A DNA stretch of 64,000 nucleotides from Escherichia coli (lineage in GTDB: Bacteria; Pseudomonadota; Gammaproteobacteria; Enterobacterales; Enterobacteriaceae), in assembly GCF_041886205.1 (NCBI RefSeq), contig NZ_CP169029.1. One strand, given 5' to 3'. Under the pieces are notes generated by a model. The model made no database searches and was not told the DNA's origin. It saw only the letters and a list, made by a program, of their open reading frames with translations. This document shows, piece after piece, positions 29,176 to 31,901 of this stretch. Position numbers and translations under genes: made by a program. Position 1 is the stretch's first letter, and every line of letters starts with the position of its first letter.

Positions 29176-31400
29176 TCAACGAATACTGATGCCGGAAGCG
29201 GCTTTTTTGGTCACAATCACCGTACAGTCGGTGATATTGCCTGCCCCCTGATTGCCTTTCTGGAAAATCTTAAACTCCAGAGTGACGCTTCCCCTGCCAC
29301 TCGGCATATCAATAACTGCACTGTAACTACCGGGAATGGCCCCTTTAGTTTCTCTGGATGCGATTAATACGCCGTTTTTGCGAACTTCAAAACCATAACC
29401 CGTGTATCGCGTGCCTCCTGGGTTATTTCCGCTCCCCGGATCGTCATACGCTATACCGTTAAAAATAATGGGCGGAATAATAATCTGGCGGTCAAAGTTA
29501 TGATCATCGCTGATGGTGACTGTAACCGTACCGTTTGGTGTTTCCGTGTTACCCCACGTACCGACTTTTTTCGGGAAGGCTTTTGATACAGCTTTAACGA
29601 AATCTCCTCTGACCTGGGTCGCCTCCAGCATGCCCTTAATCGTACAGTTCTGGTTAATCGTGACATTGTTGAGCGTTCCTGAGTTCGCATTCACACTGCC
29701 ACTGATATCCGCATTTTTCGCCGTCAGTCTCCCGTCTGATGTCAGGGAAAATGCCGGAGGATTACCGCCGCTGGTAATGGTGGGGGCCGTCAGGCGTTTC
29801 AGGAACACTTCATTCATGAATATCTGATCGCCCTGACCAACAAACATCGGCTTTGTGTTGCCATTCGCAGGATTAATCATCGCAATCCTGTCTGCTGCCA
29901 GCAGCACCTGACTCTGCATGCCGTCAGGGGTGTTCTCAATACCGGCACCGATACCCGCAATATAAAGGCGTCCGTCCTGCATCTGCTGCAGCTTCACTGC
30001 CCACATGCTGTTCAGGTTATTATTTGTATCAACCTGAACCTTCTGTATCTGCTGGATCGCTGCACTCTGGTCTTCCAGTTTCTTATTGACGGTCTGTGTT
30101 ATTTCATTGCTGACATCCGTTATGGACATCCTGATTTCAGTCAGGTCAGGCGCAAGCTGACCGTTATCAATCTGCGTCCACAGCTCCTGAGCCAGATGGG
30201 TTTTCCCTATCTCGCCTTTGAAAAAATCCAGATAGCCTGATGCATCATCACTCGGCTGACCGACAGCCTCCACGAATGCCGATTTGCCAACGGTGTTCAC
30301 ACTGCGAACGTAAAAATAATAATCATGGCCCGGTTTGATATTGATACTGGCGGCTATCCAGTACAGTGCCGTACCAAGATAACGCGCGCTGGTTTCAACC
30401 TGCCTGATATCCGCAATCCGTTTTTCCGAGAACCAGAACTCAAACTGTACCGTCGGGTCATAAACCGCAAGATGCGGCGTGGCGGTTATCTGAAAATAGC
30501 CCGGCGTCAGCTCAATCCGCGACGGCGCTGCCGGTGCGGCAATCCGGAACGATACCGACGCCGGATCGCCCTGCTGCCCCCACGCATTTACTGCCCGGAC
30601 TGTCAGCCTGTAGTTCCCCAGAGCCAGTTGTGTGAAGCGGTAAGTGGTTTCCGTCGTCCGGGCCGTGCTGACCAGCCGCTCACGGCCGTCATCCGCTGCC
30701 ACGGTCAGGCGAAGCAGGAAGCTCACGCCCTTCACCACCTTCGGCGTGTCCCAGCGCGCCAGCACCTGGTATTCCCCGCTGTCTGCGGTGACTTCTGCGG
30801 TCAGGTGCTGCACCGCTGGCGGCGTGACACCATTTACCGTGCCGCTCTGGTCGCCGTCAAAGTGCGCCCCGTTATCCACGATGGCCTCTTTTTCCGGTAC
30901 ATGCTGCACGGCGGTGATGGCATACGTGCCGTCATCGTTCTCACGGATACTCACGCAGCGGAACAGGCGCTGGCGCAGCGTCGGCAGCTTCAGCCCCCAC
31001 ACGCTGTATTCTGCAACGCCGTCAGGAACACGGCTCACTTTCACCTTCACGCCGTCGGTGACGGACTGGACCTCCACGCTGACCGGATTACCCTGACCGT
31101 CAACCAGGCTTATCAGCGTGGTACCGGAGGATGGCAGCGTGATTTCACGGTCGAGCGTCAGCGTCCGGGTCTGGCTGTTCACCGCCAGCACGCGCCCGCC
31201 GGTGCTGATGCCCGCATAGTCATCATCGCAGATTTCAATGACATCCCCCGGTACATGGCGAAGCCCTTCCGCACCCACGCTGAAGTCCACGGTCTGCGTT
31301 TCCAGCAGTTCCGTTTTAATCAGCCACAGCCCGGCGCGGTGCACCTGCCCCCGGCTGGTACAGCCAAAGGCATCCATCTTCGTGACGTTACGACCGTATC
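29176..31400 (-). pseudogene. J: host-specificity tail tip protein J, lacking about the first 380 codons
   Basis: collinear with the C-terminal two-thirds of lambda J from ..[17 protein letters not shown].. onward; no native start codon or RBS. Confidence 0.8.
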
Positions 31401-31901
31401 CGTTGTCTGTGTACGGGGAGTTCTGGCTTTCGGTGCCAGCATCTGCGCCACACCACCGAGCACCATACTGGCACCGAGAGAAAACAGGATGCCGGTCATA
31501 CCACCGGTCCCAATGGCTGCCCCCCATGCTGCAAGGGTGGCTCCGGCGGTAAAGAATGATCCGGCAATGGCGGCAGCCCCCAGGACAATCTGGAATACGC
31601 CACCTGACTTGGCCCCGGCGACTCTGGGAACAATATGAATCACAGCGCCATCAGGCAGAGTCTCATGTAACTGCGCCGTTAACCCGGACGTGCTGACGTC
31701 CCGCCCGGCAATCCGTACCTGATACCAGCCGTCGCTCAGTTTCTGACGAAACGCCGGGAGCTGTGTGGCCCGTGCCCGGATGGCTTCAGCCCCCGTTTTC
31801 ACACGAAGGTCGATGCGGCGACCAAATCGTTGTAAATCCCCGTAAAGGCAGATGCGCGCCATGCCCGGTGACGCCAGAGGGAGTGTGTGCGTCGCTGCCA
31901 T
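31320..31901 (-). pseudogene. I: tail assembly protein I, 3'-truncated by a deletion running into J
   Basis: matches lambda I from MAATHTLPLASPGMARICLYGD.. to ..KARTPR.QTTD, then a frameshifted tail read from J DNA. Confidence 0.75.

Follow-up and report, generated by a model that had tools for sequence, protein, structure and literature searches.

Known lambdoid prophages and tail-tip genes

The cryptic prophages Rac, DLP12 and Qin of Escherichia coli K-12 are mosaic lambdoid elements that have decayed by deletion, and in K-12 Rac truncated tail-gene pseudogenes adjoin lomR and stfR. The prophage remnant described here, which lies in a stretch of 64,000 nt from E. coli (NCBI RefSeq assembly GCF_041886205.1, contig NZ_CP169029.1; hereafter the window), is of the same mosaic and deletion-decayed kind. 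Like the three K-12 elements, it keeps an integrase, the Q antiterminator, a lysis cassette and cargo genes (trkG, porin, emrE and rusA), is without immunity and head genes, and carries truncated tail genes. The window is 99.9-99.98% identical to E. coli wlxctx60 (NZ_AP045833.1), with the exception of a 1.3-kb IS3-family insertion at 39900-41206, and the gene names quuD, essD, rrrD, rzpD, trkG and ynaK that are used in wlxctx60 are DLP12 and Rac names. In contrast to Rac and DLP12, however, the remnant is located at the lambda attachment site (ybhC/ybhB-bio). It also differs from Rac, DLP12 and Qin in that its three late-region junctions are confined to one E. coli lineage.

The tail-tip genes of phage lambda are the reference for the junction studied here, which runs from gene I into gene J. 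In the cryo-EM description of the lambda tail tip (PMC11101478), residues 159-175 of gpI form a plug and the strands after the plug lodge between the hub domains of gpJ, of which the N-terminal ones prolong the tail tube. The J fragment of the window ('J) has about 93% DNA identity to lambda J over codons 426-833 and the same order of C-terminal domains; its receptor-binding C-terminus differs, with identity being about 76% or undetectable past J codon ~860. Deletions in this region are also known from other prophages. The Ec-FL1-1X prophage also carries an I'-'J fusion, in which 1,177 bp are lost between I codon ~184 and J codon 333, and the E2/Z1323CEC group has a deletion of ~950 bp internal to J. 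As in the window, the part of J that encodes the hub is lost in these prophages and the C-terminal part is kept. Since their breakpoints and sizes differ from those of the window, the Ec-FL1-1X and E2/Z1323CEC deletions are separate events and do not reflect shared ancestry.

The prophage remnant and its scars

The remnant is a lambda-like prophage of ~20 kb between ybhC and ybhB/bioA, in the lambda attachment-site region, and in wlxctx60 the host genes on both sides give the order ybhC-int...tfa-DGC-ybhB-bioA. Its first part consists of int, xis, Ea8.5, a truncated O, a frameshifted P, ren, emrE and ybcN-rusA-Q. After Q come a porin gene, lysis genes, trkG, the gene of a ParB-N protein, the TAGT::K' fusion, I' and 'J, and the remnant ends with lom', 'stf, tfa and the gene of a MASE4-GGDEF cyclase. 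An attachment-site integrase with flanking host genes and the loss of virion-essential genes, both of which are characteristic of defective lambdoid prophages, were found here. The integrase, the three scars of the late region (D1 to D3) and the genes beyond the J fragment are the following.

44490..45560, plus strand: integrase gene, beside ybhC, at the opposite prophage end (ORF; wlxctx60 annotation)
31799..32596, minus strand: TAGT::K' fusion, scar D1, with its junction at 32076/32077 (Pfam; alignment to 6EVA)
31397/31398, minus strand: scar D2, from I to J, 1,504 bp gone, shared TA
28891-28895, minus strand: scar D3, between lom' and 'stf, 3,297 bp gone, TATGC microhomology of 5 nt
28875..29105, minus strand: lom' remnant, a 76-aa ORF (Pfam Ail_Lom, positions 1-74 of 199)
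28337..28894, minus strand: 'stf remnant, a side tail fibre gene reduced to its C-terminal 185 codons (BLAST, Pfam)
27753..28337, minus strand: tfa, an intact tail fibre assembly gene (Pfam Caudo_TAP, E = 1e-43)

At D1, 16,087 bp are gone, from the terminase gene to the middle of K, and the shared bases are AA. This scar fuses the N-terminal part of a TAGT/GREB1-related glycosyltransferase in frame with the last 93 codons of K.

Two intact relatives of the late region were used for comparison. The prophage of 6EVA (L009/L010) is much more complete and occupies the same chromosomal site, with ybhC on one side and ybhB on the other; its genes include those for the terminase, head and tail, with a frameshift in the tape measure gene and an internal stop in stfR. 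TrkG, lysozyme, Tfa (the product of the last phage gene of the remnant) and the diguanylate cyclase have identical accessions in 6EVA and wlxctx60. Compared with 6EVA, the remnant is missing terminase, portal, capsid, tail tube, tape measure and L; K is without its 5' half, I without its 3' end and J without its 5' part, and the region for immunity and recombination is gone as well. The early region has further losses. In the ES10 prophage (L006), I, J and lom are contiguous, and the identity to the window is 99.7% on the I side and 99.8% on the J-lom side, with five differences in 2.5 kb.

Breakpoints of the I-J deletion

An earlier note on this DNA, made from the letters alone, had claimed a deletion junction near 31395..31400 at which I runs into the middle of J. 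A BLAST search with the reverse-complemented window as query against lambda (J02459) gave two adjacent matches that map the breakpoints. The minus strand of the window from 32077 to 31393 corresponds to lambda 14597-15282, which is the 3' part of K and I, at 99.3% identity, and that from 31398 to 30177 corresponds to lambda 16780-18002, which is the middle of J, at 93.4%; both matches have E = 0 and lie far above chance identity. In ungapped base-level alignments to ES10 and 6EVA, the last base that matches I is 31397 and the first that matches J is 31398, so that both the fusion and its approximate position are confirmed. Relative to these intact relatives, 1,504 bp are absent. In the alignments to both of them all bases at the junction can be assigned to I or to J, leaving no filler DNA. 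The flanks of the junction are contiguous and colinear in the intact relatives, and no mobile element is present at it.

The in-register overlap of I and J at the junction is TA, and this 2-nt overlap is at chance level; therefore, the microhomology says little about the mechanism. The overlaps at the neighbouring scars are 5 nt for D3 and 2 nt for D1. The earlier note had placed the crossover at a short shared ACGG-like sequence. ACGGT is indeed found at both parental sites, yet it is one base out of register with the crossover. As a crossover site it would give GATAACGGTCGT, with one extra A, whereas the window has GATACGGTCGT; as the simple account of the crossover the pentamer was therefore rejected.

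The size of the deletion determines how the two fragments are read. Since 1,504 mod 3 is 1, J is in frame -1 relative to I, and the I frame continues through 25 wrong-frame codons and then meets a stop. An Rfam scan of the window gave no match at the I-J junction, and promoter-like and terminator-like sites around it occurred at the frequency of shuffled controls, with none that was suggestive there.

The I' and 'J remnants

The junction and the segments on its two sides are the following.

31397..31901, minus strand: I' remnant of the lambda-type tail assembly gene I (ORF list, lambda BLAST, Pfam)
31397..31398, minus strand: I-J deletion junction, TA (ungapped alignments to ES10, L006, and 6EVA, L010)
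31320..31396, minus strand: out-of-frame tail of the I' ORF, 25 codons of J DNA (ORF 31320..31901)
31399..31527, minus strand: spurious 5' extension of the J-frame ORF, an ATG and 43 codons (ORF 29176..31527)
29176..31398, minus strand: 'J remnant of the tail-tip and host-specificity gene J, codon 426 through the stop codon (BLAST, Pfam)

Of the 223 codons of I, I' retains 1-168 and a single base more; 55 codons are gone, which bears out the earlier claim that the end of I was removed. The remaining DNA is 99.3% identical to lambda and 99.7% identical to the closest intact relatives. The I' ORF, on the minus strand at 31320-31901, encodes 193 aa and ends with a TGA at 31322-31320; it is colinear with lambda I up to residue 168, and the 25 residues after that are unrelated to lambda I. 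The Lambda_tail_I domain (PF06805) is whole in I', at residues 14-97, with full profile coverage and E = 7.1e-28 (Pfam). The complete C-terminal part of gpI, consisting of the plug and the beta-strand region, is not present. The cut falls within the plug segment (residues 159-175), and in comparison with lambda gpI as described in the tail-tip study (PMC11101478) everything past residue 168 is lost, that is, half of the plug and the strands that are inserted into the hub.

The J remnant begins at codon 426 (compared with lambda, ES10 and SE11). The start of J is thus lost, as the earlier note had stated, with 425 codons gone instead of the roughly 380 that it had estimated. The identity of 'J DNA is 93.4% to lambda J and 99.8% to the full-length gpJ gene that the ES10 prophage carries, and the J reading frame of 'J, with 739 codons, is still open. 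Only the last hub domain is represented, and that partially, by positions 90-162 of the 164 of the PF13550 profile. PF24421 (Ig_J), PF24489 (Ig_J_second), PF09327 (Phage_Tail_Tip) and PF12421 (Ig_GpJ_C) are complete and all above their curated cut-offs, so that 'J contains two Ig/FNIII domains and the tail-tip fibre and, at its C-terminal end, the receptor-binding domain. The N-terminal hub domains, which join gpL and gpM and continue the tail tube, are not encoded by 'J, and, judged by position against the cryo-EM description (PMC11101478), the lost 425 residues should comprise most of the hub domains. On sequence features, I' and 'J belong to the gpI and gpJ families and are complete members of neither.

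The start of J itself, its ribosome-binding site and the I-J spacer all lie inside the deleted 1,504 bp. The receptor-binding C-terminus had been described as left without a start, and this is correct for the native start; two fortuitous in-frame ATGs are nevertheless available, at 31527 and at 31377, the latter being Met433 of J. Neither ATG is preceded by a convincing Shine-Dalgarno sequence, and the sole GGAG for the ATG at 31527 is 13 nt away. The J-frame ORF that starts at 31527 spans 29176-31527 and encodes 783 aa, of which lambda J is represented from residue 45 onward. Its start was considered as an alternative N-terminus of J and was rejected, since the DNA of the upstream 44 codons is that of gene I (99.7%) read in another frame. 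A continuous J homologue with an alternative N-terminus was not found at the locus.

Distribution and order of the deletions

Of 5,426 complete E. coli genomes, wlxctx60 is the only one with the I-J junction, and D1 and D3 are likewise each found in this genome alone. An exact copy of the junction 36-mer is present in wlxctx60, and NCBI draft and Logan assemblies contain it at 12 more loci. Exact-sequence look-ups also retrieved three products from draft and Logan assemblies: that of I', that of TAGT::K' and the J fragment of 733 aa. The I-J junction is real and is a marker of one sampled lineage. Two of its carriers (L018 and L020) have an added 1-nt deletion at window position 31249, a frameshift inside 'J that fits relaxed constraint.

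The TAGT::K' product is found on at least 50 contigs, many more than carry D2. In the sister lineages L011-L013, TAGT::K' is accompanied by another deletion, which begins near nt 186 of I, reaches the end of lom and occurs with or without an additional stf deletion. As D1 is shared and the losses between I and lom differ between lineages, D1 came first and the later deletions arose independently. The 5,426 complete genomes held no intermediate from which D1 to D3 could be ordered, and the TAGT::K' contigs of the draft and Logan assemblies gave the place of D1 only. D2 and D3 occur together wherever both are visible.

Origin of the I-J junction

We consider that a single illegitimate deletion of 1,504 bp, which took place in an already defective lambda-like prophage and left two pseudogene fragments, is the best explanation of the locus, with a probability of about 0.9. 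The earlier 16-kb deletion recorded in TAGT::K' had taken all head genes and most tail genes. With these already gone, nothing remained of the function of I and J that could be lost. I, just past codon 168, was then joined to J codon 426 at the 2-nt TA overlap, probably by replication slippage (copy-choice) or by end-joining at minimal microhomology. Because ES10 has a single contiguous stretch of I-J-lom to which both flanks are 99.7-99.8% identical, a simple internal deletion accounts for everything. The two fragments appear to have no selected function.

D2 and D3 might instead represent one complex event, such as serial template switching in replication. Both scars are present in all loci that are long enough (the window, wlxctx60 and L014-L020), the complete genomes hold no intermediate between them, and short microhomology is found at both (2 and 5 nt). 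However, such clonal co-occurrence is equally expected from two sequential deletions, neither junction has an inverted or templated insertion, and single deletions are frequent here, as the sister lineages show. A joint origin of the two scars is thus unlikely.

Recombination between different prophages would be another source of the junction, either as illegitimate recombination between co-resident lambdoid prophages or as exchange of a J-lom patch. E. coli typically has several copies of I and J (at a median of three places per genome), and the segment between D2 and D3 (31398-28891) is 97.0% identical to 6EVA, compared with 99.7-100% for the flanks; this difference implies that the direct ancestor had a different J allele, or that the segment was exchanged. 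However, the divergence from 6EVA in J-lom consists of two patches around a near-identical core, and thus it is patchy within J and is not bounded by the junctions. In addition, ES10 is a single parent-like prophage in which both alleles are contiguous, at 99.7-99.8% identity. The patchy divergence resembles ordinary lambdoid mosaicism, which does not by itself prove a purely internal history, and we regard an inter-prophage origin of the junction as quite improbable.

The single internal deletion would have left 'J as debris. Alternatively, 'J could be a functional and selectively retained truncated receptor-binding protein, translated from the ATG at 31527 or at 31377, with the deletion being a step of domestication. 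The 739-codon frame is open, all C-terminal domains are recognisable, a 733-aa protein is called in some annotations, and Q and the late-operon genes upstream are intact. But the signal peptide and the partner hub proteins are absent, translation would start within a folded hub domain (of PF13550, profile positions 90-162 are all that is left), and there is no good Shine-Dalgarno sequence at either ATG. Moreover, in two sublineages the fragment is frameshifted close to its 5' end, J is wholly deleted in the sister lineages, and with five differences in 2.5 kb compared with ES10 so little time has passed since the event that an open frame carries no meaning. A selected function of 'J is therefore hardly credible.

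Given the intact Q antiterminator and lysis genes upstream, read-through transcription of the late operon over the fragments is possible. Temperate phages take up DNA from defective prophages, according to a general statement on the subject (De Paepe et al. 2014, cited in PMC11860743). A literature search for documented recombination of lambda with a J-like relic gave no direct support, only this general citation. That 'J is retained as a reservoir of host-range recombination for lambdoid phages, or is expressed in a Q-dependent manner as a free receptor-binding protein, appears very doubtful, and any such use would be incidental rather than selected.

Finally, the chance that the junction is an assembly or sequencing artefact, arising from a mis-join of repeated prophage copies, is negligible: I and J are multi-copy in E. 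coli and several contigs end within J at 29379, but the same junction 36-mer recurs in a complete genome and 12 loci from samples that were sequenced and assembled independently.

Annotation of the locus

The locus reflects ordinary stepwise prophage decay, which is a well-known process, and it holds nothing novel, as RefSeq already records both partial pseudogenes in the near-identical wlxctx60; there, PGAP marks 'J as a pseudogene 'missing N-terminus' and I' likewise as 'missing C-terminus'. The locus raises no new question and is of little importance beyond its correct annotation: I' and 'J should be recorded as pseudogene fragments that belong to a cryptic prophage, and neither a tail fusion protein nor a new variant of J should be read into them. 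The locus is a worked example of stepwise decay, of possible use in teaching or as a marker of the lineage. In some draft-genome annotations, the 733-aa product from 31377 is named 'host specificity protein J'. Exact look-ups of the 193-aa, 180-aa, 783-aa and 265-aa ORF versions returned no records. The versions on record are only those with the starts chosen by gene callers (160, 733 and 258 aa), and the 160-aa I' product, which begins at the GTG start of PGAP, is present exactly on 7-8 Logan contigs.

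Deletion scars flanking the I-J junction

In addition to the I-J scar (D2), two deletion scars, D1 and D3, are present in the prophage remnant.

Features of D1 and D3:
31799-32596, minus strand: in-frame TAGT::K' fusion ORF, junction at 32076/32077 (D1)
28875-29105, minus strand: lom' ORF, with the first ~72 codons of lom
28891-28895, minus strand: D3, the third deletion scar, with a TATGC microhomology and 3,297 bp missing
28337-28894, minus strand: 'stf, the 3' end (185 codons) of the side tail fibre gene

The D1 fusion resulted from a deletion of 16,087 bp, by which the span from the terminase gene to the middle of K was lost. 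In its product, ~170 N-terminal residues come from a TET-associated/GREB1-related glycosyltransferase (PF20691) and are followed by the part encoded by the final 93 codons of lambda K, where the NlpC/P60 match covers profile positions 41-105 only. Exact copies of the 258-aa product were found on at least 50 contigs, and in databases the fusion is named as an ordinary protein ("GREB1-related protein" or "NlpC/P60 family protein"). D3 fuses lom' to 'stf, and the 'stf ORF begins with an ATG at the junction itself, within the shared TATGC.

Decay and mosaicism of the J fragment

Two Logan loci carrying the D2 junction, L018 (ERR1790342) and L020 (ERR1623321), share a 1-nt deletion in the J fragment, equivalent to window position 31249, and their called J-fragment product is cut to 671 aa; decay has continued within the D2 lineage. 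The J-lom segment (31398-28891) is 99.8% identical over its whole length to those of the ES10 and SE11 prophages. Compared with the 6EVA prophage at the same site (L010), it shows two divergent patches, at 31343-30684 and 29488-28971, on either side of 1.2 kb of near-identical core sequence. This patch pattern is typical lambdoid mosaicism in J.

J deletions in other E. coli prophages

The hub-encoding 5' part of J has also been deleted, with the 3' part kept, in the prophages of the strain E2 group (L004) and of Ec-FL1-1X (L005). These deletions are independent events: that of Ec-FL1-1X is an I'-'J fusion with 1,177 bp missing, and that of the E2 group, of ~950 bp, is internal to J. The latter is found in the nine other loci that matched the I-J junction query in two pieces among 5,426 complete E. 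coli genomes, and these include at least seven chicken isolates.

Genes at the prophage end and beside the lysis cassette

Features of these two regions:
26348-27679, plus strand: MASE4-GGDEF diguanylate cyclase gene, cargo at the prophage end between tfa and ybhB
32568-34972, minus strand: block of trkG (potassium transporter), a ParB-N/Srx protein and the TAGT glycosyltransferase

In the prophages of 6EVA and SE11, tfaR is likewise followed by this diguanylate cyclase gene. The trkG/ParB-N/TAGT block, which lies between the lysis cassette and the expected position of the terminase gene, is kept in 6EVA and CFSAN061771. Its ParB-N ORF (263 aa) is unbroken in the window and is annotated as two pieces in the near-identical genome of wlxctx60. 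A strong match to Rfam "IS009" (RF02111; 225 bits) at 27796-27994 on the minus strand falls wholly within the tail fibre assembly gene tfa, and what RF02111 describes is apparently a stretch of coding sequence conserved among prophage tfa genes.

Early-region losses and an insertion sequence

Three losses are seen in the early region (~41403-44039) when it is compared with the 6EVA prophage: ~2.6 kb around ybcK, 315 bp within the replication gene P, and ~8 kb comprising the 5' part of O, the repressor/cro region, kil, gam, bet and exo. Therefore, the remnant has neither an immunity module nor a recombination module.

Insertion sequence:
39900-41206: IS3-family element; its ALIL frameshift pseudoknot (Rfam RF01497) lies at 40233-40349

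This element is missing from 6EVA and from wlxctx60, which is otherwise 99.9% identical. Its target duplication is at most 7 bp, and its orfB appears to have been divided between two ORFs (40275-40664 and 40675-41166) that are not in the same frame.

Chromosomal features outside the prophage

Two further matches are ordinary features of the E. coli chromosome and do not belong to the prophage:
15979-16123, minus strand: Moco riboswitch upstream of moaA
17388-17429, plus strand: small match to the ES036 sRNA family
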